The notes: generated from the letters alone by a model not told the origin. Counted from the stretch's first letter, positions 12,750 to 64,000 are shown. The stretch: DNA of 64,000 bases from Psammoneis japonica (GCA_008632985.1 QPGO01000011.1:310001-374000), one strand, 5' to 3'. Numbers and translations: made by a program.

Positions 12750-15320
12750 CCCCGACGTTCTTCAATGCAGTTTTGCCTTTCGTTTGTTGACTTTGTTGAC
12801 ACCCAACGGAGTTTGCACTTTGCACAGGTCATCATGAAATGCAACTCCTAGAGATGGGACACAATTAGATGACGATTCATACACATGTTTTTCACATGTT
12901 TTGTTTGGTCCTGGTCAACTGGCAACACAAGAATGAAAGAAGCAAGTGCTGCAAAAGCAAAGTGGTGATTCAATCAAGTTCCCTGAAGTCAGACAGCATC
13001 AGCATGAGAGGAGTCAATGGTGTCTCACCCTGTGTTTGGCCCAAGCACGCCAATGATTTGTGAACTCAGAACTTGTTTTTCTCATGCACCCCATGGCTTT
13101 CTGCAGCCATGTGTTCACCCAGTGAACTGTCAAGCTCTTGCAATGTGTTTCTCGTGACATTGCTCAAGTGCTCTTTACACTGCTGGAAATTGCTCATCTG
13201 TGGCTTTTGCACTGCGTGTTTGCAAAACACAGTGTGGCATCTGGTCTTTAGGTGCTTGGGGGAGCTTGGCAGCTGCTGCATCATGAACTGCTTTTTGTGC
13301 AAGCAGTGGTTGTTTTGAGAGCAGCACCCTGATCAGGAAGACCAGATCACAAAAGAGATGCACTGGACGACGCATTTTCCTGGTCAACCACAAGAATCCT
13401 CCAGCAGGGCACCAGGTGCAGGCATGCACAAAGAGCAACACAAATGAAACTTGTTGTTGTGTGAGCATCTTTGCTGGGTGGACAGGCATCATTGGAGCTT
13501 GCATGTTGTGAGTGTCTCAGCATCTTCAAAAGACAGGTGTGTGGGTTGTTGTGTGCTGTTCTGAACAAGCTTGGCAACCCCAAAGAGATGTCCAAAAGAG
13601 AGCTGGCAAAGCTCCATTTTGCAAAGTCAAGTGCCATTGGAAAGCAGCCACAGAAGGAGTTGCTCTCAACTTGGGTGGGAATGAAGCTGCCATGCAAAAA
13701 CCCAAAAGAGAAGGGGGGGCACTCTGTTGGTTTGTCCACATGAGCCAAAGCAGCCAGCAATGAATTCTTCTGATGATTTTTTCCTCAGGCCAAGTGTCAA
13801 ACAGATCTTGCTTGTGTTGACAGTGCTCTCTGCTGCCAGCACTTGCAGCTGTGTTTGCTCAAACTGCTCAGTTGGAACCTCAAAAGAGGCTTGTGCAATT
13901 TTCTGAACTGTTGCATTCCCCCTCCCAAAATTGATGTGCATTTGTTTGCAAGGCACCAAGCAGAGCTCTGTGGAGTTTGGTCATCATCTTTGGGGCAAAC
14001 TTTGACAAACAAGGTGAGCAAACAACTCCAAAACATGTGCTTGCTCCTGCTGCCAGTGCACAGTGTGTGCAGAACAAAAAAGCTGTGGTTGCCCTGGCTC
14101 CAATCATCTCAGAAAGCTTGTTGTCTCCTCCCATTTGCCCAACCCCCTTCTCATCTGTGCCACCGCATCTCCCAGCCAAGCAAAGCCACAAAGCAAAAAC
14201 CAGAGATGACAACAAGACACAAAAGCATTGTTGAGATTCTCCCATGTTCAGCTGTTCACACCTGGTCAGCCTCTTCAGATTGCCTTCAGAAAAGCCAAAG
14301 CTGAGCCTTTTGCGAATGGTTGCTGATGAGAGAGTGCAGCATCTCTGCACCTGACGTCTCTGCGTGTCTGCACATCTTGCTGCATCTCTGATGTTTTGCT
14401 GCATTTCTTCACACATGACTGCAATCGTGCTTTGTTCCTCAAAGGAACTCTCACCTGTTGACTCAAGACCCCTGTGGCACACATTCACAGCCGTGAGCAC
14501 GGGTTGTGGTGAACATGACAGCCTCTCTGCAGACCTCATGCCACAGCCAGCTCATGTCCTTTTTTTCACCCTGTGTGCACACCTGCGCACACTTTGCTTT
14601 TTGGTTTTTTCCATGATGCCTGTGAACAGTCTGATCTTTTGTCGAAGCACTCCAGCTCTGGGTGGGACCTCGCACTGCTGAGCTGTGACCTGTGACATCG
14701 ACAGCTTTTTGGATCACACCGCATGTCACACAGCCATGTAGAAAGGCGTGAGACTTTTTTGAAATTTTGTGTCATTTTGTGGTGCACTTGTTGAGCAATC
14801 CGTCTAACAACTTTTGACATTTTTTGTTGCAGCACGATTCTACAATGTCTTGAGAATCACGTGGGGCAGGCACATTTGCGCAAAAACGTCGAGTGGCAAC
14901 AGGCAGCATTGCACCACAAACTTGGCCGTTCATTTGATGTTGAAGATGAATGTGTCCGTTGATTAAATTCTCACACTGCAGAGCTCACATGCAGAATTCC
15001 ATGGGCCCAATGTCACACGGAGTCCCGCCTGGAGAACTGGAGCCCGTGTCTGTCTTTAATTTTCTTCTTGCATGTGCTGCTGCAGGCCAAGAGTGCAGAT
15101 GTTTGCAGCTCTGGATGATGACCAGTGGCACCTGTGCTCTCATCGGGGGGGCCAGCTGAGTTTTCATTTTGCTTGACAATGCAGGGGTGCTGAAATGATG
15201 TGTGCCCACATGATGGCGCACGTGGTTGGTTGCCACACCTTCGCGGACAAAAGAGCTCGACATCGGACTGCTGCAATTTTGTTCCGAGGTCTCATGGGGC
15301 AGGTCCAATGCTGCACTAAA
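12750..15320. other. TpA-depleted hypermutated block 1 (probably TE-derived; contains a MITE)
   Basis: Only about a dozen TA dinucleotides in ~2.6 kb. TG/CA-rich. Six-frame ORFs are essentially Tyr-free and Cys/His-rich. Confidence 0.9.
14644..15050 (-). mobile_element. ~407-bp MITE of the GACGCGTTCCAG-TIR family, heavily TpA/CpG-mutated, 4-bp TSD TGTC
   Basis: Aligns by eye to the reverse complements of 39497-39780 and ~62350-62437. Flanked by tgtc at 14640-14643 and 15051-15054. Confidence 0.85.
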
Positions 15321-15398
15321 GTGTGACCATCTGACCACATCGGACTGCTCTAATTTTATTCCGAGGTCTCAATCATGGGGCAGGTCCAACGTTGTACT
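15260..15398 (+). repeat. ~60-bp tandem duplication straddling the block boundary (15260-15317 and 15337-15398)
   Basis: acatcggactgctgcaattttgttccgagg...ccaatgctgcact versus acatcggactgctctaattttattccgagg...ccaacgttgtact. Confidence 0.9.
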
Positions 15399-15636
15399 CT
15401 CTAGAGAGCTGCTCTGTAGTTACATTACTTTAGTAGAGCGAGATGTGTACTTACATGTTGTTCATTCGTTGCCACGTCATCCCTCATAAATGCTGACTCA
15501 TAACCAAAATTTGCGGTTTGCGTCGTTCATGCTTTTCTGCGCTCACAAAGTTTACTTCTTCTTCGCAACTCTGCGTCCGTGTCGTCATTCTTCGTCGGCG
15601 GTGGCGTTCAGTAAAGACACAGTTTACAAATTCACC

Positions 15637-16743
15637 ATGAAGTTTGTCAGAATTGCTCCCCAACAAATCCTTGTTGGGTTGTTTGCATTGACCCATTCGG
15701 CTAGTTGCTTTTTTCCGCTATTCTCCACGTCAGCTTCCAAAGTCGGCGCCGCAAAACCGACCATTTCAGTGAACAAAGTGGCGGTAGCTGGTGCCACTGG
15801 AAGAACAGGCAAGCTGGTTGTGGAGGAAGCATTGAGTCGCAACATGCAAGTTGTTGCGCTCGTTCGTGATTTGGAAAAGGCGGGCAAAGAGTTGCCCGAA
15901 TCAGATTCATTACAAGTTGTGGAGTGCAAGCTCGACGACGCGAAAAAGGTTAGCGAGGCTGTCAATGGTTGCGATGCAGCTCTTTGGTGTGCTACGGGAT
16001 TCTCAGATGCTCCTGGTTCATCCACCTGGCAAAAGATTCAGGGTCTTTTTGGCATTGCTTTTACCCCGAAAAAGACAATCGACGCCGTTGGAGTTCAGAT
16101 CTTGGCGGATTGTTTTGAGGGTAAAAAGGATTCGTCGGTACCACGTATCGTGATGCTTAGTTCGGCGGGAGTAACGAGAACACAATGGGACGAGGAGAAG
16201 AAGGAGCTTTTCCCAGGGAGTGCTGACATACCTATTGTTAGACTGAATCCGTTCGGTATTCTCGATGTAAAAGCGGAGAGTGAGGAAGCGTTACGAAAAT
16301 CTGGTGTCCCGTATTCAATTGTCCGCCCATGCGGTCTGAACGACGATTGGCCAGCTGGTTCGCGGCCTGTATTTTCACAAGGGGACGTTGCCGCAGGAAG
16401 GACAAACCGTAAAGATCTTGCAAAAGTTCTCGTGGATACCTTGAGAACGCCCGAGGCAACAGGAAAGACTTTTGAAATGTTTACCCTATCCGGTTACCAG
16501 CCTCCACTATCCATTTCTGAGCCTCTCGGTGCACTTCAGCTAGACAGTCACGGGCTCCCATCATTAGAAACAGTGTCCGCAACTTATACAGCAATGCAGC
16601 AGCTTTTGCCAGGAGAGAAGCAAGACTCTGCTGGCCTTGCAATGGGACAAACCTACGACCAGCTGGACTCTGATGAAGAAGGGCGATTTGGCAAAAGAGG
16701 CGAAGAGAATCTTGCAGCAGCTCTCCCTACTGTTGCGTCATAA
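15637..16743 (+). CDS. Plastid-targeted NAD(P)-binding Rossmann-fold protein (atypical SDR, Tic62/NmrA-like)
   Basis: Signal peptide ending ASC-FF, VAVAGATGRTG nucleotide-binding motif, SSAGV and YSIVRP motifs. Confidence 0.85.
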   Translation: MKFVRIAPQQILVGLFALTHSASCFFPLFSTSASKVGAAKPTISVNKVAVAGATGRTGKLVVEEALSRNMQVVALVRDLEKAGKELPESDSLQVVECKLDDAKKVSEAVNGCDAALWCATGFSDAPGSSTWQKIQGLFGIAFTPKKTIDAVGVQILADCFEGKKDSSVPRIVMLSSAGVTRTQWDEEKKELFPGSADIPIVRLNPFGILDVKAESEEALRKSGVPYSIVRPCGLNDDWPAGSRPVFSQGDVAAGRTNRKDLAKVLVDTLRTPEATGKTFEMFTLSGYQPPLSISEPLGALQLDSHGLPSLETVSATYTAMQQLLPGEKQDSAGLAMGQTYDQLDSDEEGRFGKRGEENLAAALPTVAS

Positions 16744-16840
16744 TAGTTATGTACCATTTAAATAAGTCACAGTAGAAGTAGAAACAATCAAGCTAGCATC
16801 CCATATAATATTTTGAAGCTACATTTTCATCAACGTGCAA

Positions 16841-18272: not shown

Positions 18273-21200
18273 GGTGGAAACAATTCTCGTCTTGACAGCT
18301 GGGTGTCAACAAATGAAATTCTGTTGAGCTGAAGCCTATTCGTTGGGTGCAGTGTCTCGAAAGCGAAATGTTTGAGCTCGAGCTCTTGACTCTTGATCGG
18401 GGGTCGATGACACCGCACCGCACGACGAAATTCTCACTCACACCAAAAGCATTCGCACGACTCAGCCACAACATGCCCTGGGCCCCTCCCTCACCGTCCA
18501 TCACATCATGTGCCATGAAAAACTGAAGATGTTGAAGAGACAAGATCTTGTCTTGTCGTCGACGCAGCAAAACAATTAGCATTTTGGGTGGGAGGTGAAT
18601 GGCAGAGGTCACAATGACTGCCAAGTTGCGCGCAGACTTTGGCGGCCACAGAAGGAGGAAAGGTGGTGCTGGGTGGGCGGGCACACGATTGATGGAAAAA
18701 GGTGATGGACCAATGTGGGGGCAAGGAGGGGGGCAGCAGAGCAAGGTGACAGGCTTGTTGCTGTGGTGTGGCAAATGTTGAGTGTTGGCACTCTGGTTGT
18801 CTGTTGACAAAATCAGAAAGAACAAGGGCCCCCAACAGGCGAGTGCCAGCTGCAGTGCCATCATGCCTCCTCGAGATCCAGGACATTTGGCACAACCTGA
18901 GTTGTGGCATGCAGCTTGAAGTCAAGGGGGGGGGGGGGGGAGAGAGCAGGTGGGGCAAGAAATGGTGCACTGGTGCACAAAAGACACAGCAGCAAGGCAC
19001 CCGCTGCAGCAAACACAGGTTTTGCTGTTGGAAAAACAAAAGATTTGCATTCTAGACATCTCCATGGTTGGCATGAATTGCAAGTTGCATGGAAGGAAGT
19101 TTAAGTGCCGCGCATGTTGCACTTTGTTGAAAGGCAAAGTCAAGCCACAAAGACTCTTCTTGTGCTCAAAGCAATGTGAAATGAAAAGCAAAGAGGGGGG
19201 CCTCGCTGGGGCGGAAGAGAAGTCCCGGCTCGGTCCACTCGCCGGGACGAGCTGGTTGTTTGTTTTGCAGTGGGCTCAACTTTGACATCAAAGCAGTTGA
19301 GAGCAAACTCCAGATGCAGTTTTGACATGAAATGACCAGTTTCTCAAGGATTTTCCTTCACCCAGTTTGTGCTGTGGTGCGAGTGCTGTGTGTGGACAGC
19401 AGCAGCAGCTCGGGGGGGGGCAGCACCAGGTGGCAGCCCAGATGCATCAGCTTGCTCTTCAAAAGAGCTGCAGTCACAACCCAACAAACCCAGATGGCAG
19501 TTGCCAGAAGCAGATCTCTTGCTTGAAGTGAAGCTGCTGCTGAGTTGTTTTTGCACATGAAGAAAAACAACAAGAAAGCTCATTTTCAGCTGTGCCAGCG
19601 GGGCTGCTGGGTTTGCAAGTGAGAGCAGGGGTCGTGCTGCAAGCTGGGGTGAGCAAAGTCACTGGAGACAACTCAAACTGGGGTCATGTGCATGATCTTG
19701 AAAAAAGGGAACAGGAGCACTGGATCAAAAGAAGAGAAAAAAGCACTGCACAGGCAAGGGCAGCACCCTGCCGAGGCAGCAAAAAGCACGCCAATTGGCT
19801 TTGCTCCCCAGATGCACCAGCTGCTCCCCTGCAAAAGAGTTTTGTCATTGCTGTGTTTCTGTCTTGTGCTTGTCATCAAAGTTTTGCATGCACTGGACAA
19901 GCTGATGATTTGAACAAGGTGCTGAAGCAACACACAAACATGGAGTGTGCGCGCATGGAAGTGTGCCGCGTTTTGTGAAGGAGTTTCTGGCAATGCAGAG
20001 CAGCAGAGAACCTGCTGTGCAATTTAAAACCACACACAGATGGGTCATGGCGAGAAGGGAACAAACTGCAAAGCATGGTCATGGTGTGCAAGCACAAAAC
20101 TCTTTTTCTGTGTTCTGCATTTTTGATGCACTGGCCGAAGGACTGCTTCAATCTTGACATCTCTCAGGCTTTGCTTCTGACAAAGTGATGAGGACTCCAA
20201 TGTTTGTGCCATTGGCTGCAGGCGTCCCATCACCTGTCATTGTTTTGTCTTTCGCTGGTGTGAACACAGTGGCACAACAACACAACATGCACATGCAGAT
20301 GGGTGTTGTGTCATTTTAAGGGGCTTGGGTGTTGTTTCATTGGTCTTGTGTGATGTTTTGTCAGCGGGCATTGCATTGATGTGTTTTGGCCAATCAGAAA
20401 ACTCTTCCTAAGATTTGCGACATTTTTGTCAAAGGAAAAGAATAAATGAAATGCTCTTTCTTTTGTCACAATGACAAATTGCAATTGGCCATGTCGAAAC
20501 AAAGGCAATTTATGAATGTCCCATGTGTCATGACATGATGTGATCACATTCATTCCATGACTGGGTCACAATCATCACAACACTGTCGCGTGGCCCTTCA
20601 AAAACACGATCAGCAAACTCAGCGTCGCACAATCATGCTTCTACATTCACGAACAATTTTTACAACTCCTCACATGCGTTCTCATCAAAGAACACTTTTT
20701 TAGGAAGTGACGTCATTTGTGCTGTTTTTTTAACAACTTTCAATGCCTTCTATCTCGAAAACGAGTCAGAATCCCCCCCCTTTTCTCGTTTCCAAAACAT
20801 CTCTTTTACTCAGCTGCATGACATGAGCGAATCATAAAAAAAGAATCATTTTGGAGATGTTTTTGCTTTTGTGCAATCGTGTGGCATGTCACGAGCTCTT
20901 TTTCTGAATTTTGGTCTCAACTTCATGATCGGTGTTCCATGCATGGCAACGCAGACAGAACCCTGAAACCATCGTTTCCTCATCCACCTTCATGCATTGC
21001 ACTTGGTCCACAAAAGTCAGACCCATCCATCCGGTTTGAAAAATCTCGCTTCGTTTGCTCCTCCTTTCGCCGACCAACGAGGTCCCATTTTTTCAAAATT
21101 CCGAAAAACAAGTTAAAATTCCAGGCCCTGATCGGCACACAATGCTTGGTTGACATGCACCTGACTGCAAGATGCCTCTCCGGGTCCCTCCCCGTGAGGC

Positions 21201-23479
21201 GAAACACTCAACTGGCCGCACCATGAGAGCGCAGGTCCATCAAGCCCAAAAAGCCCGCCGCCAAGCACCAAGAAGGTGCAGGACACTTGTTCTTTGACAC
21301 CCATCATGAAACTTTTTTCGACAAAACCTTGCAAGTGTGCTGTCAGACCACAAAAATGACACCATGCTGAATGAGAAGAAAGCACCAATGACTGTGATTT
21401 GAAGCTGTGAGCAACCTGGCTGCCATGCTGAAGAACACACACCAGAAGCCACCCCCGCACACAGCATGGCGCAGCGCCAGGCACAAAATTGTGCACATCA
21501 GAGAATGGAAAAAACTTCAAGAATGGAGCATGATGGCAAAACTTCCTCTCTCTTCTGGCTGGTGTGGTGATGGTGGGAGAGCAGCCTTGCTGCCGTGCAT
21601 CAAAGCATGCCAGACAGTGGCGCTTCTGCAGAAGAAGGTGCAGAACAAAACAAACACATGTGCCACAACCAAGTTTGATGATTTCCCATCACCCTCTTGT
21701 TGTGCTCATTTTGTTGCAGCAATCTGAGTGATGGCTGGTCTTTGTGAAAATTGGCAGCAAAGAACAAGAAAGCACTGCAAAATTCTGCCGGGCCACCCGG
21801 AAGCTGCTGACAAACCTGAGGAACATCTGCAAAAGACAAAAACCAAGCAATGACACCAAGATCTTGCATGCTTTCATTGCCCTGTGACAAAGCACTTGCC
21901 TTTGCAGTCCAAGCAAGAACAACAGCTTTTTTGTGAAAACAACCAACAAGTGCACAGCAGTGCAGCCATTGTGTTGAGTGTGGTGCTGCTGCTGCTTGAC
22001 ATGTGGTGACACCGCACATTGTGGCTGAAACAGGGAGGGGCATCTCCAGTGTAAATTTTTTGCACTTTTTGACTGCCCAGTTGCTCGTGTGTCAGCATTT
22101 TGTTGAAAATTCTGTGAGCACAGAGTGGTGCAGCATTGCACACCTGAGATCAAAAACAGCCAAGCCCAAAATCCAAAGGTGAGGCAAACTGACAACTGAC
22201 AACAGCTGCACCCACACAATTGTTGTGCAATGTCACTGCAAAGGTTTCAAGCAGCATGGCCTCAATCTTGCCAACAGAGAAGATGGCCCATTCATTGGAT
22301 GAATGTTGCCACATTTGGGTGGTGCAATGGCTGCATTCCAGACATGCACAAACGGCATGCATGTGCCACCCAACAGAACAGGAAACCACAAAATGAAACA
22401 ATGAAACATCTTTGTGCACAGAGACAAGCAAAAGCACCCTGACAAAAGATGAGCAAGGCACTCAAATGCACAGTTTGTGAGGTGGTGGGATTGACACAAT
22501 GGCACAATCAGCTGGGCTTTGGCACACACAATGTCAAATGCAACACCCAATGACTTCCGTTCCAAGATGGTCTCAGCAGACACTCACAAGACTTGTTCTG
22601 GGAGACCATTCTCAGGACCAAAAACATGCACAACTGGACTGAACTCGCAGAAAATGAAGGATCTTGTCACAATTTCCATCTGGCACCCAGATGCAGAAGT
22701 TGCAGCTGTTGCTGTGCAGATTGCTCAGTGCTGCTCCAGCAGTGCTGGAACCCACCTTTGCAGTGTGGAGCAGCAGACTGCTGGTGGCCACTGGAGGTGT
22801 TAAACATTGGAGGAGAGGCTTTTTTTTGCAGGACACACAATGTTGCAGGGAAGGACACACTGATGATTGTGGATGACCTGGTGAATTTGTGTTGCAGCTC
22901 AAGTTGAGTTGCAAGTCTGGTGCTCATGCTTTAGCTTCTGCATCCAACTGACACAATGACAGCAGTTGGCAGCATTGGGAAGAAGTTTGCAAGCCATGTG
23001 GTGAGTTGGGGGTTCATGAGACCGAGTGCACACCAGCTGGCAAGCCACAATTCTCCAACACAGAAGCTGAAATGGCTGGCTGGTGGGAAGTCATCAGGAA
23101 TCCCAGGGTGTGTGGTTTGTGTCAGCAGATTGTTGTGACAAACAAGCCAGCTGGATGAAAGCAAAGAGACAAGCTCTTGAGGGCTTCTTGCTGCCTGTGA
23201 GGAAGCTGCCAAGGGTCTGCTGGAGGAGGGTGTGGCAAAGTTGTGTCAGGCTGGGACAAAATGGGCGCAAGGGGACACAGCTGAGTGCAGAAGCACAAAA
23301 GACTCACAAAGGAGTGGGTGCAGGACACCATTGCCAAGTCAGGATGACAGGCAGATGGCCACACAGAAAGCACCAAGAATTGGCGAGCATGTCAGAAAAG
23401 AAAAGAATGTTTGGGCCAGAGATGCAGGTGCTGGCATCTCTGAGGCAGGAGAGTGTGCCAAAAGAGCCAGAGCATCCAT

Positions 23480-23875
23480 CAGGAGACACAATGTTGGAGA
23501 AAGACAAGGCAATTTGGGGCAAGCAATGTGATTGCCATGTGAAACAGAGCACAATCTGCAAGATGCAAAAAAGGCAAAGGCACTCAACACAATTGTGGGA
23601 CAGCGCACAAAGAGGCTGTTCATCACAGTGAGGTTGAAGGTTGAAGGAGTGATGGAGTTTGAGAGGGTCACTGAGAAGTGAAATGTGTGGTGGCGCTGTC
23701 TGGGGTTTTCAAACCAATCTTGTTTTTGATGCAAGTGGGAAGATGTGCCAGCATGACCAGGAGGCGGTCAAGGCTTGGAAGCACTTTTTGCTCATTTGTC
23801 AAGATCATGAGGGAGAAGCACTTCAAGATCATTGTGATCGGCTCTCAAGGAGTGTTGTCAAGATGGCCGAAACAT
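23480..23875 (+). mobile_element. Degenerate Ty1/Copia (diatom CoDi-like) gag fragment
   Basis: KAIWGKQCDCHVKQ..IC, shifted-frame KAKALNTIVGQ, LVFD...AVKAWKHFLLICQ...LQDHCDR. Resembles diatom Copia gag once C/H are restored to Y. Recognised from memory only. Confidence 0.45.
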
Positions 23876-23899
23876 CCTGCAGCAGAGTCATCCTGGAAG

Positions 23900-24170
23900 A
23901 AATCAGTGTCAGGGTCAGTGATCTGCCCCAGATGCCAAATGCATTGTCAACAAGTTGCTTGCAACAAAAGAGGTTGGAGCCAAACTCCTCCATTGTGAGT
24001 GCAGCTTTTTTGGGGGCACAACAGAGTGTGGCACACAGGAAAGGGGGGTGCACCCATGGCCACTCCATTGCATTGGCACCATGTGCAGTGTTGCTAAACT
24101 CGAAAACATTGTGCTTCATGACTGTTTGAAGTGCTTCAACGAGGGCTTCTGTTGGGATGTTGTTGCAGGT
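23900..24170 (-). mobile_element. Degenerate Penelope-like reverse transcriptase fragment
   Basis: LQTVMKHNVFEF, shifted-frame QCNGVAMGAPP, CATLCC and FCCKQLVDNAFGIW match the PLE RT pattern N.F.F...Q..G.AMG.P...A.LY...Y.R.VDD.F.IW with Tyr->Cys/His. Confidence 0.7.
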
Positions 24171-49927: not shown

Positions 49928-50449
49928 GGGACATGAGGAGGCAGGACTGGGGCATGGGGTACAGTGCTGGGGCATGGGAGCAGGGGGGCTTGGACGGGGG
50001 CAAGGAAAATGATTGCTTCGTTTCGGTGGCAAGCACTTTGGATCGCAATGTGAGTCAAACGCTTTGGAAACGAGTTCCTTTCTCACATCCTGGCTTGGTT
50101 GCTGCTGCTGCTGAAAAGGCAAAGTCATGTCGGAATAAGATTAATCGCGCATCATAGAAAGTCGTGGTTGCGAAGATACGGTGACGGTCTCTTGCGCTTG
50201 CGTTTCTCGGTAAAAGTCACATCGCCCGCAGACACTGTCAATTCGAGCTTTGCGCTTTGTTAAGTAAGGGTAAGCATCTTACGAAGGACGTACGATTGGA
50301 GGCTGCCCGCATGCTCTTGGAAATCATGGGGCCGTTGTCGACACTACTCGTAGAAGATCAGAATGGAATGACTCAAGTGTTGCAACACTCATTGGGGGAG
50401 AAAGACAATGTTTTTCAGCCTCTTTGTGAAATACGGGGCCTCTATTGAA

Positions 50450-50650: not shown

Positions 50651-51481
50651 TGCATTTTGCAATGGGCGTCGGCATGAAGCTGAAGGCATGTTGCCCATGG
50701 AGCGAGGAGGTAACATTTCGGCGGCGTAGAGTGCTTCGGCGGAGCTTTGGCAATACCTGCATGGGCGTTTCATATAATTTGGGATTTAGATATTGTAAAC
50801 GAGAATGTGCACAATGGGATTTCGTCAGTTCTTGCGTTTCACAAGTTTATGAGAAATTCGAAACAAACATACTCTAGTACGATGTGCTCAATACGTGATA
50901 CTCTAGTAGTGTTATTATAGCAATTGTGAAGAACTCTATGGATTTATCATAGAGCGCATTGAATGACATAGCTATGCACAGCGAATCGAGAAAGGATTAA
51001 GTCGATGGCCGAGGTAGAGCTCCATAGTTGGTATGGCGTCACTCTCAGGACTGAAGACTGAAGCACTGGAAGAAGCTATCATAGCACCAGCAGCCTATCT
51101 CATCCGCAAATCTCATCGCCGATCCGCATCTTTGTTCCTGCCATCCTCAATATTAGTAGCGTCAATCCTCATCACCATGGCGCAACAAGAACAAACCGTA
51201 GCTTTCCATGGGCGCTTGTGGAGGCTGTTCCCCACCCGTAGAGACTCAAATTCGTACGAGTTGTGGTCCATGCCTCAGTTTATGGCGTTGTACAGACAAA
51301 AAGCGCAAAGAACCCATTGAGGTGAAATTCAAACTGTGATTGGGGCAGAGAGATCATCGGCCGTCGCGGCCAAAGTTCTTTCGAAAACGTATGTGAAGCG
51401 TGGGAGCATTCTCGTAGCACGGGCGCCAATAGGTGTCTCGTGAAAGTGGAATCCAACCACAACGCATTTCGAGTTAGCAAT

Positions 51482-52574: not shown

Positions 52575-52987
52575 ATCAGAAGGAATTTTAGCAACAATAG
52601 GAGGAGACGATGATGGCTTCAATGAGATTGGTTCGTGTCGCGCTGTGCTCGGTGATTACCTGCCTCACGTTTGCCTCGATCCTCGATCATGGTAGGGCCC
52701 TCTGAGTTCTGAGTGACGTGAAAAGCTGTGAGACTTGATTTTTCGAAAGATACGATATCATTTTACTTTATCCAGTTATGAATAGTAACAAAAGCGTTTT
52801 ATTTCCGAATTTATTAACGATGATTCCATCACACATCACGCACACCCACATCCCATAGGACCACTTGTGAAGGGGTGGTGTCAACTGTCAACGAAGCTTA
52901 CAAACAAACTCTCGAAGTCTCGAAGGATCAAAACCATCAGTGAACTAACTGAAGCACTATTTTGGTCTTACGCAAACGAACGCAAAG

Positions 52988-54488
52988 ATGTCCGGATCCT
53001 CCAGCAGCGACGACGACGAAGAAGAGAAAATCACTTTATGATGATCTTCGTGATACCGCAGCGAATCTTACCCGTGACATGCTTCTCGAGTTTTCCGAAT
53101 CTACAATCGAAGCAGTCTTGGAAGCTGGAAAGTCCGTGCCGTGTTTCGGGGCCTGCGTGGTCCTGCTGCACCGACTCTCAGAAGCCGTTAGAGATTCCCA
53201 GAGAAACAAGGAAAGCTGCGAACGGATAGGCGTTTGGGCGAAGGGCATCAAGGCCGCGCTGGTCATGGCATGGCCCACGGTACAGAAGACCGACGACTCG
53301 CAAGCGATGCTCACCGTTATGGTGACAACGGCGGAGGATGTCGGCAATCTGAGGACGATGGTGAAGTCCTACAACCGCCGAAAAAAGGCCATACAGCTCG
53401 TCACTGCTTCCGCATTCAAGACCAAATTTGAAAAAGCGGAAAGGAATGCCGAAACGATGCTCGATTGCCTCGTCGCTTGCCTGCAGGCTGTCCAGTTGAA
53501 GATCACCGCCCAGAGCGTCGGAAACCTGAGCGCCATTCACGGAATTCAGCTCATCAATAGAAGCCAACTGGACAATGTGGCCGAAAAGCAAAATGAACTT
53601 GTCGAGAATGCCAAGAAACAGTTTGACAATATTGCAGGGCAGCAGAATGATCTTTTCGAAAGTGCCATGAAACAGTTGAACGAGAAGCTAAATAATCTCG
53701 ATAGCCTCGTTGCTAGCTTGCAGGACGTCCAGTCGAAGATGGCCGCCAAGAGCGACGACAACGCGAGCGCTATTCACGGAGTCAAGCTCATCAGTAGAAA
53801 CCAACTGGACAATTTGGCCAAAGAGCAGAATGAACTTATCGAATATGCCGAGAAACAGTGGGACAAGAGTGCAGAGCAGCGCAATGAGCTTGTCGAAATT
53901 GCCATGAAACAGCTGAACGATAAGCTAGATGATGTGGCCAGCCAGCAGAATGAACTTACCCAACACCTCAAGCAGCAGCTGAAAAGTGCTAAGAAGTTTG
54001 AAGAGGCGGTTGGAAAAAATGTGGAGAGTTTGCAGCTTAGATTGAATGCGACATACATGGATCATAGCGATCCTTATTCCTGTAATATGGGACCGATGAC
54101 AGCGTTCCATTTGATTGGAGGTAGTCAGAGCCCTGAGTGGGACATTGCTAAAATGTCGCTTGCCCGCCCTGATGTCCTCACTGAGACAGAATATAGGGAG
54201 ATCGTCAAGAGTCTGTGGAAGGCAATGCCAGCATGTCAGATGCGTGCTAACCCTGCATCACGTCTTACGGATCCTTATACCATGCTCAATACAGAACAGA
54301 TTAATTTAGGGCTTGTCCGGTCGAGCATGCAAGGTGCTATCAGAAATTTGACTGGTATTCTGAAGCTTGATGAGCGGGGTGTAAAGCTCTGCATCACAAA
54401 TGTGACTCCGGATGGTGCCTTGTTTGAATTGCAGTGGCCTTCTACTGGTCCATTTCGCAAAGCATCGGAAATCAACACCATGGCTTAG
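52988..54488 (+). CDS. MLKL-N-terminal (four-helix-bundle)-like domain + duplicated coiled-coil protein; probable extra A near 53030
   Basis: SVPCFGACVVLLHRLSEAVRDSQRNKESCERIGVWAKGIKAAL resembles the MLKL_NTD pattern. Two copies of SAIHG..LI.R.QLDN.A..QNEL. Confidence 0.6.
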
Positions 54489-54869
54489 GAGGTGAGAAGT
54501 GACCAATCATTGCGGACAAATTGAATTGTGTCAAGGTTTCTTTTACTTTTAGTGTACACAGAGTGACCCCACATAAGAATCCACGAGTAGTGTAGCCAAA
54601 CAAGATTGCATGTGAGACCGCCATTGACACCGCTTACGATTTCCTCTAACGGCACCATCATACCTTATTTCGAAAGGCAGTAGAATGGGAAGTGATGCGC
54701 TTGTGCTCTTTTGCGAACCGTCAGCTAGACCGATCATGCACACATGCGCTAGCCTGGAGCCAGGCGAAGACATCACGATCGCATCCACTTTTCAGAATAT
54801 GCTAAATCGAAACAATGAATGAAGAATCTGGCTCGAGGCAGGGCTCTTAAATCTTCTGGATTTTAAAGA

Positions 54870-57800
54870 CAGCCGACAGCCAGCTGTGACATGGCTCGCA
54901 TCACTGAAAGTCCACAGTGGTGAACGAGCTGAGAGCGGCCACGATTGGTTGGGACGCATGGCTTCCTGTTGTTGCAGTCTTGCTTTCTCCTTTGTGCTTT
55001 CCAACCTGCTTGCGCACACTAAAGGTCCTTGCGGCCACTGCATTCTATCTCAAGTCACCTCCATTCACATGTGCCATCGCATGGATGACACCATTGGTGT
55101 GGGGATTTGCACCACGGTTTGTGATGCAATGACCATCAGGATTTGCTTTGCTGCTGCATGACATGCAACTGATGTGCTTTGTGCCACTTTGCATTTGAAC
55201 ATTGCACTGGGTGAAGGAACCCAAGATTGGAGTGAAACATGCCGGCACAAAAAACAAAAAACCGGAAGAGACGCAATGCTTCCTGCAGAGAGTGGAAGAA
55301 CACTCCAGGCAAGGAGGAGTTCAACGTGGATTTTTGTGAGGTGCTGCCTTTTTGTTTGCAGTTTGTGCCACCATTGGAGAAGCTGCTCTCCAAGGAACAA
55401 AGCTGTGCATTGCTTGTGTTCAGCAAAATCAAGTGGGACGCTGGCTGAGCAGTGCATGACCACACCAAAAGTGGCAACGACGATCATGATGGTCATGCTG
55501 AAAACATCATCATCATCAAGGGTGCAACAAATCCAGAAAAGTTCAAGATTGCTGGCAATGTTGGGGCTGGGGCAAGGCAGTGGATGGCAATCAAGGAAAA
55601 GGGCAGCTGCAGAGGATGGTTGACAAAGGGGCCGGACCATCAGCTGGTGGAGCAGCCTTTCCCAAGTGTGCATTTTGGTTGGACCAAGTTGCCATTTTGG
55701 CAGATCCAATTGTTTTGGTTGACCAACCACCAACCAATCAAATGAATTTGATTGACCAAATTAACAACTGCAAAATGTCAGCCAAACTCATTTTCATGTC
55801 CATTTTCACACAAACGATGCTGGTGCAGTTTCTACAAAATTTGTGCAGCATGTCGACATGCTCGCTTTCCAACAGAAGATTCTCCCAAAAGCGCGCCAAA
55901 TCCTGCCAGCCAAAATGATGTTTTGGGGAAACAAAATCACTTTGGTTGCAAGCATCAATTTTGTCAACAAATTTGCACCAACCAAAATGCCCATTTTGGT
56001 CGACCAAAATGTGCACTTGGGAAACACTGGTGGGAGAAGAGGCATGAGTGAGCTTTGTGTGAAAGTCATTGCACCAATGACAAAGCATGCTCGTGCTGCT
56101 TCAACCTCCAAGAAGCTCTTGCCATGCCAGTGAGTGAAAAAAAAAGGAAGAAGAAAGCTGCTGGAAGCAAGCTGCCAACTTCGTGGTGGATGTTCTTCCT
56201 CTGAAAGCAGCACGGAGGAAGTTTGGCAGCTCCTTTGTCTCGCGGGCATGAGGGTGATGTTTGGCTCACAAGCTGTGTGTGGCGGGCATGATTGAGAAAA
56301 CAGCAGCCAAAAAATGATGTGCTGTTTGTTGCAACAATGCTCCTGTCTCACAAGCTGGCAGGCTTTCAAGCCCTGTGAGCACTGCATGGCAAGTTGTGGA
56401 ACAAAACGCAAATGCAAAATGGCGGTGGCATGAGAAAGTTTTGGCAGAGGAGATTGGTCTGGTGGCGACTGAGGATGAAACGGCCAGAGAGCGGCTTGTG
56501 TCTGTCATCAACGACTTGCAGGATGATTCGACGACTTTTTCAGTTGCAGGACAATGTTTTGGTCGCAAAAAACCCTTCATGACAACATCAGGAGCAACTG
56601 TGATGGCTCACCCAACCTGCTGTCAAATTGGGGATGGTCAGATCCCATTGAAAATGCAAAACAATGTCTGTGACCAACTTTGTGGCACACGAATGAAGGA
56701 CGCGACAATTAAAGCCAGACGCGAGACTGGCTGGAAGCCTTGGGCGGAAGGCCTGTTGACCAGAGAAGCAACTCAGCATTTGGAGAAAGATCTTCCAGAG
56801 ATTGCAAATGGCTTTGGAGAGCATTTTTTGATGAGCCAGGCGATCTTGACTCTGTTTCAAGCGAGATGCGCGCCATTCTGCGGCAATCAAACTTGACAGC
56901 ACCGCCAAGTTCAGACAGACCTTGTGCTGTTGTTGGCAATTTGGGCCCAGCAAGCTTGCTTGGTGAAGGCAAGGAGGGGGAGGAGGGGGGTGCTGCAACC
57001 CCATTGCCGTGCAAGAAGCGAAAGATTGAGGATCCATGGCAAGTGAAGGCGTTGCGAGAACTGGCGGCTGGCAATGTCCAAGCATTTGCAGAGCTGGAGC
57101 TTGTGCTGCTTTCATTTGACAGTGATGGCAATGATGCAGAGAATGTGACAAAGAGAGAGTGCAGGAAAAGGGACATTCAGCCATCAATGGAAACTGTTGA
57201 GTCGGTGACGATGATGAGCATTTTCAAACTCAAGGCATCAAGGATGAACTTGCGACTGGTCCGAGACAAACTCGTTCAGCACCAGCGATGGTTCAAGCCA
57301 AAAGAACTTGTCTTGCATCTCTGCCCCATCTTGTGCCCCAATGTGTGCCCAGAGATCATGCAGCGGCATCAGCATTTTTGGCACAAGCATCTCAAAATGC
57401 AAGAAATTGAAGCATTTCACGCAGCACATGAGGACAAGCTCTTTGCACTTGAGAGCTGGGCATTTGTCCTCCTCTTGCACCACCCTTTTGAGCCCCTCTT
57501 TCAAAAAATTGTGAGTGTGCCAATGGCTTGTGTTCAATGCCATCTTCCTTTGTTTCTTGCTTGTTCTGCTTCTTTTTCCTTGGACTCTCTTTTGTTTGTT
57601 GTGCTTGGCTTGCCATGCTTCTCCTTTTTGACCACATCATTGTTTGGCTTCTTGTTTTTCCTTGCATCAGAACCCAAGCAATTTGTGCACAGTGGCGCTT
57701 GTTGTCAAGGACTGCATGTTGCAGGGACAAGGCATTGACCATTGCAGGGACAGACTCCAATGCATCCTCCACGAAGAAGGTTGTTGCTGCTGCGCACTTT

Positions 57801-60800
57801 TTCAACATTGCCAAGCTTGCTCCATCAGTTGGTGGATCTCAGTTGTCACAGACCTGTCACAAATTTCCCTGAATTTTTCAAGATCCTCTTTGAATTTGTC
57901 AATGTCTGGCTCATCTGACATCTCAGCAGACCCAAATCTTGGCAAGATCTTTTGAAATGTGCCAAAACCATTCTCTTGTTTGGTTGCTGCAGCACCCATT
58001 TTTGATCTCATTTCATCCAACTCATCTTTGGATGCATTCTGCAGGGCGCAGATCAGTGCACTGAAGTTGTGCATCATTCTGAAGCAGTTGTTTCCATCAA
58101 ATGATCTGCCGCAAAATGGGTTGTGCTTGGTGCCAATGGGGAGGCTTGCCGCCAGTGACTGACTCCAGAGCACTCTTTGCATTTCCCTCAGTGGTGTTTG
58201 AGGCAGGAACCAATGTCAGACAACAGACCCTCTGGAGCAGGGCAGATTGTCTTGAGTTGTGAGAAATGTTGAGCTGACTCACACTCCTCTCTGTGTGTTT
58301 GCAACAGGGACACTTCTGCTTCAAAGTTTGGCAGAACTTGATTCCAAGCTGCTCAGAGCAGCTCAGCTTTTGCTCTTTTTTCCTTGGTGCTCTTGAGACT
58401 CTTGCTTTCAAAACATGCAATGAGGAGAGAAGGGCATGACTGAAGTGTCAGCTGAAGTCAAAGATTTGTTGATGGCTGGCCCACTTGTCTCAGCTGTTTG
58501 CTTTTGTTTCTTCTTTGTTTTGCTCTTTGGGATGTTCTCAAGCTGTTGCTCAGCTGCAGCAGCCATGTCCACAGCTCTGTTCCTGCAGCTGCATTCTTTG
58601 ATTTTGACTGCACCAGTGCTTCAAGGGAAATGTTGCAGAGAAAGCAGAGGGGAAGGGCAGAGGTGCTGCATCCTTGCAGGCCAAGGGTGTTGTCAATGAG
58701 TTGAGCATCACCACAAAGAGGAATGGTGTGAAGCACGCAAGTCTCTGGCTTCATCTGATCAACCTTGGTCTGCTCCATTCTTGCACAAAAAGGCATCTCA
58801 ACCTCCTTGTTTGTTTCTGTGTGTCAATGGACCACAGCTCCCATGCATGGTTGTTGACAGCAAGAAGGGTCTTGATGTGGGTGCTCTCTGTTGTTGAAAC
58901 AGGGGCAACCGGCTTTTGGCTTGGGCTGGAGGAGGGCATTCAGCTGCTTTGTTTTTTGCCAACAGACTGATGTGGTCATGTTGCTCCAGCCATGTTGTGT
59001 GCAAACAACACTGGACAAGAGCCTCCTTTTTTCAAAAGAGGTGGGTGTCAAAAGCATGTTTTCAGTTGTTGAGCAACTTCTTTCTCAGGCTTTCACATGT
59101 GTCTGGTGCGTCAAGATTGGCAATGAGATCAAGCAAGTTGGGGCTGCTTGGGTCTGTGCTGCTCACAACTGCAGCTCCAAACTTAAATTGCCACAAACCC
59201 TTTCAGTTTTCAGAAATCAGCCAAACCACAGCATGCAGTGCACAAAATGTGCAGAGTTCCACGCCACACTTTGCCACGTTGTAAATCAAAATGACATGCT
59301 GGTGCAAGCACAGCAAAAAGTGTGATGGGTGGAGAACACATTGACATGAGAAATGAAAGCAGTTTGGTGCCACACAACTGTTGACAGACACCTTGCATGT
59401 CCACGCACCTCAAAACTTTCACTCACTGAGGTTTTAAAAATCAAAAATTTTGGACAGTCCTCATTTTGTCAGATCATTGTGTGTTGTCAAGCATGTCTTT
59501 GCAATCAGCCAATTTGTCAACTCAAGATGCACCCTTGTGCCAAACAGGCCAGGAAACAGATTGTCTCTTTCCTTTGTGCTTTTGCCATGGTTTCAACTTT
59601 TTAACACGTCAAAGTGCAGGCTCAACTTTGTGCCAAGCACTGCAGCATGCTGTGGTTTGGCTGACTGAAAGGGTCAATGAGTGTGCCGTCACTGAGTCTG
59701 GTTGCTGTTGAGGACTTGACAAGAATGCCTTTGTTCGCCAGAGCCTCAACACGTGGACAAATCACACCACTGACACTCTCAGCCAGAGGTGCCTGTCACC
59801 ACATTTTGTCCTTCTTGCCATTGCTGTTGTTCACTTTCAACACGCGCATGGTGTTGTCAACTGGCTTTCTGAGAGTGCTCTTCCTGTCATGAAATGAAAG
59901 CCCAACCAGCATGCTGAGCAAATCATTCATTGCAGCAATCTTTCATTCTGCCATCCCACCCATTTCCCACAGCTCAACCTGTTTCTCTGTGGGTTGGGCA
60001 CATGTGGAATCTTGTTGTGTTTCTTCTAAATTGAAAGAAGAGTGGCTTGCAAGCAAACACTGAACAGACTTTTCCTGGCACACATTTCATTTGCACAAGC
60101 ATCTTCATGGCCACAATGTGATGGTGGGCACCAATTGTTTTGACACCCCCTTGGCAACTTTTGAGGTTCTCATCCACCACTTGCTGTGCCACACCCTCTT
60201 GCACTTGGGTTTGGTTTCATGATGCCTTTGTTGTCTCACACCTCCTCTGGAATTGCATGACTTTGTGTCCCATGTGCTTGAGAGTTTTGGCTGGAGCCAT
60301 GCTTTGGATGTCAGTGTCGCCACTGACGTCACTGGCATCACTGGCATCACTGGCAACAGCTGGCCAATGAAACTTCTTGAGACCCTGTCAAGGACTCCTT
60401 CTTCCAAGTTTTGCAGATCTCTGCCACAAGCTGTGGCATCAGCAGTGGCGCTGGAAACCACACCACAGGGGGGTGCTCAATGCAGAAGAAAAGTTGGGTC
60501 ATGAGGATTGCTTGTTTTCTCCATTCCTGGCACATCATCTTTTTAGGACAGACTGGGGCAGATGTGGGCTGGGGAAATGGCCCAGTCAGTTGACTCTCCA
60601 CTGCACTCTCTTCTTGGTGGCTGGTTTGGCTGAACCTTTGGCTCTTCTTGAGCTGAAGTTGCAGCTTGTTGAGAGCTTCCTTTGCGTGGTGCTGGCTTTT
60701 TGCAGCACATCTGCCAGCAACAAGCAAACAAAGGCAAAGTCCTTCATCACAGGATTTGCAGCTCCTGGTGTTGTCAATGTGTCTCCACCACAACCAAAGA

Positions 60801-61740
60801 ACTCATGCAGCAATGCGGCTGCCATGCAGCAAAAATTTCTGTTGGGGGATGATGAGACAACACAAGTTGAGTGCTGATGGGTTCCAATCCCAGGTGGGAC
60901 TCCGTGTGACATTGGGCCCGCAGAATTCTGCGTGCGAGCTCTGCGTTGGTGTTGTCAATCAATGAAAATGTGAATGATCGCCAACAGAAAAAGAGGCAAT
61001 TTTACGAGCGCATCTCCTCCTTCACACTTTAAGTGCATGAACAACAGTTTGCATGGGCACATTCTACAGACATTAAAGAATGTGCCCAGTGCATTTTTGT
61101 TGTCACAAATGTTGAAAACAAAAAGCCTTTGGCTTTGCAAAATGGGAAGTGTGAAACAATCATTGACCACTCAGTGGTTGGTGATTGCAGACTTTTTCGT
61201 GTCGGTCCGGCAGTCAGGCAGTCGGGGGGTCGGGGGGTCGGGCAGTCGGGGGGTCGGGCAGTCGGGTTGTCCATCTGAATTTGAAAGTGTGTCCCTTGGA
61301 TTTTGAAAGGGTGTGGGTTGTTTAGTGCAGATGAATTCTTCGGATTCTTGGAGTTGTCATTGAGGACATGAGAGGTTGTGGGGACATCCTAAAAAATCGA
61401 TAAATTCCCTGCGACGGGCACGTGGCACGGTTTTTCGGGAGAGCTCGAAAGTTCTGAAAAATTGGGATTGACGGCGTGGCATGTTCAAAAATGCATTCAA
61501 TCACATCCCTGGTCCGCGCCTTCATGTTGCGCGAAAGCACAACGTGGTTTTGTGCTGTTGCCAACAATTGACAAAGCCGGTCATTTGACACCTGACCTGA
61601 CCCAACTAGCCAAAGCAGGCTTTGATGATGGTGTCTGGTGGTTTGACAGTGTCAAACAACCTGAGGTGGCTTTCATAAGACAAACAGCAAGAGGATACAT
61701 TTTTGGTCGTGAAAATCGCCACGTTGCAGAAAAGTGCAAC
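54870..61740. other. TpA-depleted hypermutated block 5 (unassigned TE/gene relics)
   Basis: TA nearly absent over ~6.9 kb. CpG is retained in ~56400-57300 but rare in ~57800-59000. Confidence 0.9.
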
Positions 61741-62437
61741 GCGGTTTCTACTGGAATTGACGCAGAATTCTACAGGGTTAACATTTTGAGCGCCATTATT
61801 TAAATGTTGACATTCATGCCGAATGAGGCATTTGACATGCAAATGCTATTTTCATATAGCATACGATGACATAGATGTATATAAAATCCTGGCTGCACTT
61901 TCCTACAACGGTGTGGAGAATGAAAGGGAAATGTCTGTGACCCAAAAATCGTGCACTGTTGCACAAAAGCGCAACGATGCGCGGACCAGGGATATACAAA
62001 GATAATTTATCGTGAATTCTACACGAAAAAGTCATATTGGGGAAAACATATCGAACAATAAGTGAGTTTGTGCGATGCGCTATTATGGCGATAAATTGGA
62101 AAAAAAGAGTGTCCGTGCACCTCGCTACAGCCCCAAAAATGGCATGAGACATCAAATATAACGGTCATCCGCGTCACCGGTGCGGTGGCCACGCCACTCA
62201 GCCGCCACAATACCGGCCCCGGCGGTAGGGCCCTACGTACGTACAGGCAATACAGCATGCAACGGCACACATACACCCACACCCACAAAGAAAGACAAGT
62301 GGTCAATGCTCCCCGCAGGCCTGGTTTCGTAGAATATCACACGTAGCCATCTACGTGCGCGACATACGGCGCGATCCAAAAAACTATTGATGTCACAGTT
62401 CAGCACCACGAGGTCCCACCTAGAGCTGGAACGCGTC
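60876..62437 (+). mobile_element. ~1.56-kb non-autonomous TIR element of the GACGCGTTCCAG family, 4-bp TSD TGCT
   Basis: Left end gatgggttccaatcccaggtgggactccgtgtgac; right end ...ggtcccacctagagctggaacgcgtc. tgct at 60872-60875 and 62438-62441. Internal 8-bp GTCGGG(CA/GG) array ~61201-61266. Confidence 0.85.
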
Positions 62438-62444
62438 TGCTGGA

Positions 62445-64000
62445 CACTTGCCCTTGTTGATTTTTGAGAGACATGTCTTTTTGTGCACCCATTCAAAGTT
62501 GACCACAGAAACTCCCAACTGATCCAGAAATGACCTGTCCTCTTCTGATTGATTCTTGACATTTGAAGCCAACCACCATCTTTTGCCTGGAGCCAAATGA
62601 ATGGTGATGATGATCAGGGTCCTGCATGCAGTGCGCAAATGCACGGAGCCAATCTTTAACAACTTGCTTGGTCAAAGACTGACACTTTGGTCTGCAAGTG
62701 ACAAGATTGACGACATTTTTGTGCAACATGTCAGCCACATGTGGCGGCAACAAGATCCGCTCAAAACATCATGACTTCAGGCATGAGGGATCAATCAGTG
62801 ATGTTTTGATGCAGCAACAGCAACTTGCCAATTTTTGTGCAGCAAAACATGCACATTTTTTGCACTGAAGCTCTTGAATTTTAGCCCAAGCAAAAAAAGA
62901 AAGAAGGAGGTGGCTTTCAGCACTGCTGCAGATTCTGTGTGCTGATGGCATCACAGTGCAAAATGCATTTCTGCGCAGCACGGTGGTCCCACTCCAGGAG
63001 TGTCATGTGTGGTGCAGCAGCCATTTGAAACCTGGGTGTTGCACACCTGGGTTTGCTGGCACAGGTGTGGCACACTCGTGTGAAAAGAGGGGGTCACATC
63101 CTGCTCATTTTTGTGAGTGTGACACCTGCACCAAAGTTGCAGCTTCCACACCTGGTGGCGCTGTCAGTGCAGTGGGCACATGTGCTCATTTTTTTTTTGC
63201 TTTTTGCCAGCAGCAGTCATTTGACAGAAGCATGATGTGAGCCCCTCCCTTGGCCCCTCCCTTGTCGTCGCACAAAAACAAAAACAAAAAAACGTTTTTT
63301 GTTTTCGTGACACGCGCGACAGCCTTGTCATCAAACAGCAAACAAAAACACCCCTTGCATGCATTTCTGCACCAAACCACGCACGTGCGGAGCCACGTGC
63401 TGTCAACACCGGCTTCAGTCGACAGCAGCAAACAAAGTGGGCAAGACATGCAATGGTGCGCTCGAATCCATTCATGACGGCAATTGTCAATCAATCATGA
63501 CGCAAGTCACTGCAGTCAATGACATTGGTTGAATGTCATCTGCAGCACAAAAGATGAGATGAAATGTGGTGGACCATGCGCAGAATGCTGGTGCAACAGA
63601 TTGGTTGTCAGAAATGCGCTGTTCTCGTGTCATGTCGTCACAAGTGCACATCATGTGAGGCGACTGTAGAGTGATGGCCAAGGCAAAAGTAGAACCTCAC
63701 ATGGCCATTAAAAATGTGGCAAATTGAATGGTCACGTTCTTTCCTCCCTTTGTCGCATCTCATGTGCAGAATGCAGCGGATCGCATTGTCATGCTTTTGT
63801 TGTGTGGTCACAAATGCACGCCACAAGGCATCCACAGTGAAGGACAAGGCCACAGCAGAACTGCACATGACCAATGTCAATGTGGAGAATGAGATGGAAA
63901 AGCTTGTTCCTCCTCATTCTGCCAGAAGGGGCCGCATCACGTCGATGTGTCGATGCATCAGTCATGGTCATCACAGGTGGTGGATTTGTGCATGGAAAGA
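62445..64000. other. TpA-depleted hypermutated block 6 (runs off the window)
   Basis: Only a handful of TA in ~1.55 kb; TG/CA-rich. Confidence 0.85.

Follow-up and report, generated by a model that had tools for sequence, protein, structure and literature searches.

Region-restricted replacement of TpA by TpG and CpA in intergenic blocks of the diatom Psammoneis japonica

The stretch of the Psammoneis japonica genome analyzed here comprises 64,000 nucleotides (GCA_008632985.1, QPGO01000011.1:310001-374000; one strand, 5' to 3') and is referred to as the window. Its genes with recognized products are ordinary nuclear housekeeping genes, and the intergenic fill between them includes blocks, reaching to about 150–600 bp from the neighboring open reading frames (ORFs), in which the dinucleotide TpA has been almost completely erased. 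These blocks form eight segments (12881–15317, 18338–20317, 20836–25848, 35316–39496, 39782–42852, 48207–50136, which is weaker, 54865–61607 and 62422–64000), counted as six or seven blocks, with edges resolved to about 100 bp and a total length of 26,934 bp (42% of the window). Dinucleotide counts were pooled over the eight segments and compared with those of the other 37,066 bp. TpA occurs 69 times within the blocks (observed/expected ratio 0.04) and 1,574 times outside (0.60), in agreement with a first-pass annotation made from the sequence alone, which had described sharply bounded blocks almost without TpA amid genes of normal TpA content. CpG is depleted in the same blocks (544 within, ratio 0.34; 1,980 outside, 0.97), and TG and CA together are enriched (5,921 within, 1.76; 5,397 outside, 1.17). 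The CpG depletion had been overlooked in the first-pass annotation, which gave the conversion of CG to TG or CA through 5-methylcytosine (5mC) only as background; its remark that such decay cannot explain the loss of TpA remains valid.

Block 1 (12881–15317) is intergenic, between an ORF at 10545–12635 and an NmrA-like gene at 15490–16743, and contains seven TA (ratio 0.044) and 37 CG (0.26), with TG and CA at 1.79 and 1.85. Block 2 (18338–25848) includes an old internal duplication, with copies C (approximately 21450–22350) and D (approximately 24200–25050); the ratios of its two segments, 18338–20317 and 20836–25848, are 0.034 and 0.019 for TA and 0.37 and 0.23 for CG. The islet of about 500 bp between these segments (20318–20835) bears one to three TA per 100 bp and matched no other part of the window. 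Blocks 3a (35316–39496) and 3b (39782–42852) are both TpA-poor by dinucleotide counts. TpA is erased in block 3a (seven TA, 0.026) and the loss of CpG is partial (96 CG, 0.38); block 3b has six TA (0.031) and 29 CG (0.15), with TG at 1.91 and CA at 1.85. The weaker zone (48207–50136, with a core at 48207–49047) holds the right arm of a 103-bp inverted repeat and combines a TA ratio of 0.14 with a CG ratio of 0.84. Block 5 (54865–61607; 18 TA, 0.04; 120 CG, 0.31) holds a decayed coding relic (56441–57375) and the longest TA-free run. Block 6 (62438–64000, continuing past the window end) was counted from 62422 and contains five TA (0.047) and 42 CG (0.46), with TG at 1.88 and CA at 1.90.

With the exception of the weaker zone, the TpA ratio is thus 0.02–0.05 in all segments, at or near saturation. 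Over all eight segments, the weaker zone included, the CpG ratio varies from 0.15 to 0.84. The longest TA-free runs, measured as gaps between successive TA, are 2,474 bp (56710–59184), 1,530 bp and 1,490 bp. If TA were as frequent as in the flanks (4.2%), a gap of 2.4 kb would arise by chance with a probability of about e^-105. Sliding 500-bp windows were scored as positive if the TA ratio was below 0.2 and the TG/CA ratio above 1.5. This test was passed by 98 of the 255 windows of the stretch, compared with one of 1,420 windows in a control set of 80 metagenome loci (385,561 bp) around orthologues of one flanking gene, and that single control window has a GC content of 70%.

At the densities of the flanking DNA, the blocks would be expected to contain about 1,144 TA, 1,439 CG and 3,922 TG+CA. 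The blocks have lost about 1,075 TA and 895 CG, together about 1,970, and have gained about 1,999 TG+CA, as predicted if TA and CG were converted into TG and CA. Decay of CpG would account for about 895 of these approximately 1,970 losses, but for no lost TpA. Other AT-rich dinucleotides are not depleted (AA 1.25, TT 1.30, AT 0.80), and the two products are balanced between the strands (2,997 TG and 2,924 CA). The GC content is nearly unchanged (0.491 in the blocks, 0.468 outside) because the conversions of TA and CG cancel each other.

The direction of change is given by three internal copy pairs (283, 103 and 691 aligned positions), the most informative of which belongs to a family of elements with terminal inverted repeats (TIRs). 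The same 28-nt terminus occurs at four sites, in a mutated form at 14644 and 60876 and in an unmutated form at 39497 and 62437. Copy A (14644–15050, plus strand; about 407 bp, the right end being approximate and taken from the alignment) is a mutated member with inverted termini at the edge of block 1. Copy B (39497–39780, plus strand) is an unmutated, truncated member, with 22 TA and 18 CG in the aligned part, and is followed by a single N at 39781. Over their 283 aligned positions, A and B differ by 35 transitions and seven transversions, and 32 of the 35 transitions lie within aligned pyrimidine–purine dinucleotides; the two copies are 94% identical in a purine/pyrimidine (RY) alphabet and 84% identical in nucleotides. 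The 22 TA of copy B correspond in copy A to TG (11), CA (7), TA (2) or other dinucleotides (2), and the 18 CG to TG (3), CA (6), CG (8) or another dinucleotide (1). Conversion from B to A therefore affected 18/22 TA (82%) and 9/18 CG (50%), with one and two changes, respectively, in the reverse direction. Counted per adenine on both strands, A→G changes in this pair were found at 18/44 TpA, 1/57 ApA, 3/32 CpA and 0/29 GpA; C→T changes were found at 9/36 CpG, 2/32 CpA, 2/23 CpC and 0/24 CpT.

The second pair is the inverted repeat (47976–48078 and 49470–49572; GC-rich, 103 bp, with a (CG)n-like core), which brackets about 1.4 kb and may represent the ends of a transposon or a regulatory structure. 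Relative to its outer arm, the arm inside the depleted zone displays two TA→TG changes, two changes of CG to CA or TG, one C/T difference and one transversion. The third pair consists of the duplicates C and D of block 2, both TA-free, whose alignment has 99 transitions, 42 transversions and 120 gap columns. Among the TG and CA of this alignment, 19 discordant TG:CA pairs stand against 123 concordant ones; about 24 discordant pairs would be expected if approximately one third of the TG and CA had come from TA or CG and the copies had been hit independently. A change from TA to CG was never seen in the copy pairs, which fits a first hit that destroys the target on both strands. TpA in the blocks was thus lost in place and specifically, from both strands alike, within sharp regional limits and faster than CpG.

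Most of what the first-pass annotation had read from the composition is borne out by these comparisons, namely the persistence of ApA and ApT, the hits on either strand, the replacement of TA by TG or CA in paired copies and, as the comparison named beforehand as decisive for the idea, the excess of A→G at TpA over the other adenine contexts. Two of its statements need revision. Polymerase eta, proposed there as a candidate for its WA hotspot, is a poor fit, as ApA is untouched in the A/B pair. In addition, the statement that no eukaryotic pathway with this signature had been described is superseded by a preprint that reports the same spectrum in the chlorarachniophyte Bigelowiella natans (Mettrop et al., bioRxiv 10.64898/2026.01.13.699255).

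According to this preprint, integrated DNA of nucleocytoplasmic large DNA viruses (NCLDVs) and virophages undergoes de novo TpA→TpG/CpA hypermutation in B. natans. Of the 231 de novo mutations detected in two viral regions with Illumina data, 230 were A→G or T→C, and every GC-biased one was at TpA; the NCLDV region had a single mutation of another type among its 211. The rate was about 6e-7 per site per generation, about 1000-fold over background in mutation-accumulation lines, with only some lines affected, and the authors propose that an ADAT2/TadA-like enzyme deaminates the adenine. Sequence context wider than TpA is not given in the main text of the preprint, nor is CpG mentioned (10.64898/2026.01.13.699255). 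The blocks of P. japonica share with the regions described there a dinucleotide-specific A:T→G:C spectrum at TpA on both strands with both products, TpG and CpA, the regional restriction beside normally evolving genes, with many targets lacking annotation, and the long-term signature of clusters of windows depleted in TpA and enriched in CpA and TpG. With the thresholds of the preprint, 26 of the 64 1-kb windows of the stretch pass, in clusters of seven, eight and six, compared with 1 of 349 windows of the control loci. The signature is therefore a new example of a recently described kind, already reported in that preprint.

The two cases also differ, as far as the preprint describes its own. 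The host is a diatom (Stramenopila) here and a chlorarachniophyte (Rhizaria) there; the TpA ratio is 0.04 here, near saturation, compared with a Rho of 0.45 for the NCLDV region there; CpG is co-depleted here (9/18 converted in the A/B pair, ratio 0.34), whereas virtually no G:C→A:T change is reported there; and at least some of the targets here are copies of TIR transposons, not recognizable viruses, unlike the viral targets there. Full-text literature searching, which included papers on diatom transposons, found no report of a TpA-erasure signature in diatoms. New here are the second, distant lineage, the near-saturation erasure, the co-located slower decay of CpG, a TIR family with mutated and unmutated copies, a boundary inside an element and the relative resistance of TTAA.

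The last of these features emerged from the contexts in which TpA survives in the blocks (58 survivors). The density of surviving TpA relative to the flanks is highest in TTAA (0.40; 19/58), followed by CTAA/TTAG (0.20), and is at most 0.06 in all other contexts, with no survivor in ATAT, GTAC or ATAC/GTAT. CpG survives best in GC-rich contexts (GCGC 0.72, TCGA 0.24). The context bias of the surviving TpA may be the fingerprint of an enzyme.

The blocks might instead be foreign or selected DNA that was poor in TA and CG from the start, for example through viral avoidance of nucleases or sensors, or they might reflect GC-biased gene conversion, polymerase eta errors or ADAR editing of retroelement RNA. 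The lack of convincing Pfam matches in the block DNA and the viral nature of the targets described in the B. natans preprint would both suit a foreign origin. However, the window contains one TIR family and one inverted repeat of which some copies are mutated and others are not, and the differences between these copies fall exactly on TA and CG sites. Gene conversion biased towards GC is at odds with the barely altered GC content; the WA hotspot of polymerase eta and the preference of ADAR for adenines after U or A are at odds with the untouched ApA (1/57), and editing of a single RNA strand followed by reverse transcription with the near equality of TG and CA. Moreover, no reverse transcriptase or viral domain was found by Pfam in the block ORFs or in the read-through of blocks 2 and 5, and no viral_contigs match was found for the relatives of the coding relic. 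We consider this whole group of explanations extremely improbable.

The long member of the TIR family (60876–62437, minus strand; 1,562 bp) has inverted termini (plus at 60876, minus at 62437) and arms that match copy A. Its two halves differ in composition: the left half (60876–61600) is depleted in TpA and the right half (61600–62437) is normal for TA and CG. The numbers of TA per 100 bp are 0, 4, 0, 0, 2, 1 and 0 for windows starting at 60900–61500, and 3, 4, 9, 3, 9, 3, 7 and 6 for those starting at 61600–62300. The depleted left half retains much of its CpG, and fully converted DNA resumes directly outside the terminus at 62437. A mutation boundary can thus apparently fall inside a single element, and the TA-normal islets inside blocks would be young insertions. 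The half-mutated element may have been caught while the process was spreading, or it may consist of two copies combined by recombination or nesting.

Copy B, the unmutated member, is bracketed together with the only N of the window (39781) by a 96-bp duplication (39401–39496 = 39782–39877), whose two copies have two mismatches, both CG/CA. We infer from this arrangement that short-read de Bruijn contigs were joined here by a k-1 overlap, the insertion being heterozygous or repeated. In that case, the two mismatches would be CpG transitions that distinguish two alleles of a block.

The nature of the assembly matters for another explanation, in which TA and CG are really present and a base-caller misread 5mC in CpG as T and some modified base in TpA as G. 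In nanopore data, methylation induces miscalls of 5mC as T and of N6-methyladenine as G. The 96-bp overlap with its single N suggests a short-read de Bruijn assembly, and short-read chemistry would not be expected to misread these bases. The contigs of a sequencing run, which may be the source of the assembly itself, contain 0.72 of the sampled 31-mers of the stretch 35000–44000, 84% of which is block. Additionally, a strand-specific miscall at a palindromic site should leave a mixture with some TA and CG calls, and the blocks are genuinely old, with many transversions and indels and a frameshifted relic at 30% identity. Finally, the same spectrum is reported as real in Illumina data of another alga, B. 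natans, in the preprint cited above. An artefact is therefore a very improbable source of the signature.

The relation between the losses of TpA and CpG is less uniform than their shared boundaries suggest. Both losses coincide in the same sharply bounded blocks, and the overall ratio of the log-survival of TA to that of CG, about 2.9 in the blocks, is close to the value of about 2.5 for the A/B pair. Both could then be products of one dual-specificity deaminase, an ADAT2-like enzyme acting on A and on C or 5mC in DNA, which would turn TpA and CpG into TG and CA in a single targeted pathway; amphioxus and trypanosome ADAT2 are said, in work cited by the preprint (10.64898/2026.01.13.699255), to act on A and C. 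The two losses are decoupled, however, with CG ratios of 0.15–0.84 at TA ratios of 0.02–0.14, and the depleted half of the half-mutated TIR element has lost most of its TA yet retains CG. The hypermutation described in the preprint proceeds with essentially no C→T, and the target base would be the 3' base in TpA but the 5' base in CpG. A single deaminase of this kind is unlikely in our judgment. Two processes are preferred because the loss of CpG varies between blocks and lags behind that of TpA, as seen in the A/B pair (82% and 50%) and in the half-mutated element.

We consider it likely that the blocks go back to old insertions between genes, some or all of them derived from DNA transposons, and that two transition processes rewrote them in place. 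The fast one would be a region-targeted A:T→G:C hypermutation restricted to TpA on either strand and of the same kind as the de novo process of B. natans; a TA that becomes TG or CA would no longer be a target, so that TG and CA would form an absorbing state. The slow one would be the ordinary decay of CpG to TpG and CpA, as from deamination of 5mC in silenced, methylated DNA, and both would act on the same silent domains. The favored candidate for the lesion of the fast process is adenine deaminated to inosine in DNA, with an ADAT2/TadA-like deaminase as the enzyme. ADAT/TadA enzymes naturally act on A34 of tRNA, which follows the invariant U33 and thus lies in a UpA context. The targeting would depend on a chromatin domain that is silent or methylated, and not on sequence homology, since one TIR element is half mutated and most blocks are single-copy within the window.

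In double-stranded DNA, A→G on one strand and T→C on the other produce the same TA→CA/TG spectrum, and a lesion of the thymine would leave this trace as well. In such a scheme, a TET/JBP-type dioxygenase would oxidize the T of TpA in silenced DNA, with T→C as the result; 5-hydroxymethyl- and 5-formyluracil mispair with G, and 5-hydroxymethyluracil in dinoflagellate DNA prefers TpA. The analysis gave no sign of such an enzyme or modification, conversion to near saturation would require very efficient mispairing, and deamination is favored by the authors of the preprint. A thymine lesion thus appears distinctly improbable.

Several observations weigh against the proposed two-process reading. The direction of change depends on three small copy pairs, as given above. 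TG and CA are not clustered into strand runs in the blocks (runs test z = 1.56, in a test that is diluted), which gives no support for processive action on a single strand. Pfam searches of the 130 block ORFs of at least 100 residues gave five sub-threshold matches only, taken as chance, and when blocks 2 and 5 were translated throughout in all six frames, with X in place of each stop, none of the 12 frames matched a family. C→T is almost absent from the hypermutated regions of B. natans as described in the preprint, and the loss of CpG here is either a second process or a real difference. Finally, such blocks are absent from the 385 kb of metagenomic loci of relatives; either the process is not general to diatoms, or contigs of this type miss repeat-rich DNA.

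Like fungal repeat-induced point mutation (RIP), the process inferred here would inactivate selfish DNA permanently, through numerous transitions at a particular dinucleotide, and the outcome would be blocks of altered composition with sharp boundaries. RIP, however, changes C to T, mostly at CpA, and creates TpA, whereas here TpA is destroyed and TG and CA are created; the first-pass annotation had likewise described the signature as the opposite of RIP, as is confirmed by the low TpA, the high TG+CA and the direction in the copy pairs. RIP also covers duplicated sequence over its whole shared length; within the window, few repeats are present among the blocks, even in the RY alphabet, most blocks are single-copy, and one element is mutated over half its length. 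The decay of methylated CpG would account for the CpG ratio of 0.34 and the matching gain of TG and CA, but is unable to remove TpA and, in most segments, lags behind the TpA process. An earlier study mentions, as data not shown, that a diatom retrotransposon is methylated in the CpG context (Maumus 2009, PMC2806351). Deaminases such as ADAT2/ADAT3, TadA, TadA-derived editors, APOBEC3 and ADAR share with the candidate enzyme the deamination of a base in a defined 5' context and can be used to mutate foreign nucleic acid. APOBEC enzymes differ in changing C to T, and ADAR in its RNA substrate and in editing after A as well. We know of no natural ADAT that has been shown to hypermutate regions of chromosomal DNA.

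Should the signature be real in a diatom, TpA-targeted hypermutation would be a mode of genome defence in at least two distant algal lineages and not a curiosity of one chlorarachniophyte, and among the diatoms there are species amenable to genetic work in which transposons are known to be methylated. The process can evidently proceed to near-complete erasure of TpA, faster than CpG decay, and its coincidence with that decay suggests a link to methylated or silent chromatin. The sparing of TTAA provides a fingerprint that can be compared with the de novo mutations of B. natans, to tell whether or not the same enzyme acts in both. A bolder proposal, which we advance only tentatively and regard as rather doubtful, is that a single DNA-editing defence, coupled to heterochromatin, was inherited by both diatoms and chlorarachniophytes. 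Silenced or methylated domains would recruit an adenine deaminase that erases TpA to saturation and leaves the TTAA-resistant fingerprint. Its action would extend as far as the chromatin domain does, irrespective of element borders or homology, in keeping with the half conversion of one TIR element; such a system would be an ancient counterpart of RIP, with the opposite chemistry, across the stramenopiles, alveolates and rhizarians.

Most blocks are single-copy within the window, and self-comparison of the window in the RY alphabet revealed no further repeat families linking them. The relic in block 5 (56441–57375) shares about 30% identity, across one frameshift, with two unnamed ENA proteins (P0242 and P0243). 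A phmmer search with the ORF at 56713–57735 against 1.84 billion representatives gave three weak matches, one of which, a repetitive protein, was set aside, the other two being these ENA proteins. The ESM Atlas ties the two proteins weakly (0.76–0.78) to hAT/ZBED-type transposase domains with an RNase-H-like fold, which we treat as a lead and not a finding. Searches with the two proteins gave no Pfam match above threshold, no PDB sequence match, no further relatives and no viral_contigs locus, and the AlphaFold model of P0243 (mean predicted local distance difference test score of 40) is too poor to use. The ORF at 24799–25791 in block 2 was not recognized in the ESM Atlas.

Long ORFs are in excess in the blocks: 32 have at least 150 residues, compared with 19 ± 4 expected from Markov simulations, and three have at least 300, compared with 0.32. 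This excess arises partly because TGA is the only stop codon that remains. The loss of two of the three stop codons inflates the number of spurious ORFs, and gene predictors would probably call false genes there; the blocks also conceal transposons from homology-based annotation. The products of the spurious ORFs contain much Cys, His, Gln and Trp but no Tyr.

The products of the flanking genes are an NSUN/RsmB-type methyltransferase, a PCNA-like protein, two GlmS domains, the NmrA-like reductase, a Cys/Met pyridoxal phosphate enzyme, ribulose-phosphate 3-epimerase and Bud13. For the NmrA-like protein and Bud13, every named relative comes from a diatom (Nitzschia, Cyclotella, Fistulifera, Cylindrotheca, Mayamaea, Attheya and others). 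The identity of the NmrA-like protein is at most 59% to named and at most 65% to unnamed matches, and that of Bud13 at most about 47% to full-length matches; the host is accordingly a diatom, not B. natans, and the protein collection contains no close relative of it. The NmrA-like protein (15490–16743) has an N-terminal extension in which a signal-peptide-like stretch is followed by an ASCFFP motif, which we take to resemble the ASAFAP motif of diatom plastid targeting. Scans of the window for tRNA genes and Rfam families gave no match.

Three further repeats were noted. The ORF at 2861–6103, which has no Pfam domain, contains internal tandem repeats at 3643–5084, within which 4267–4558 matches 4561–4852 at 79.5%. 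The ORF at 52962–54488, also without a Pfam domain, contains internal tandem repeats at 53429–53943, within which 53460–53696 matches 53697–53933 at 82%. The third is a dispersed repeat of about 200 bp (45953–46134 and 50854–51047), whose two copies are 75% identical and lie in TA-normal DNA.

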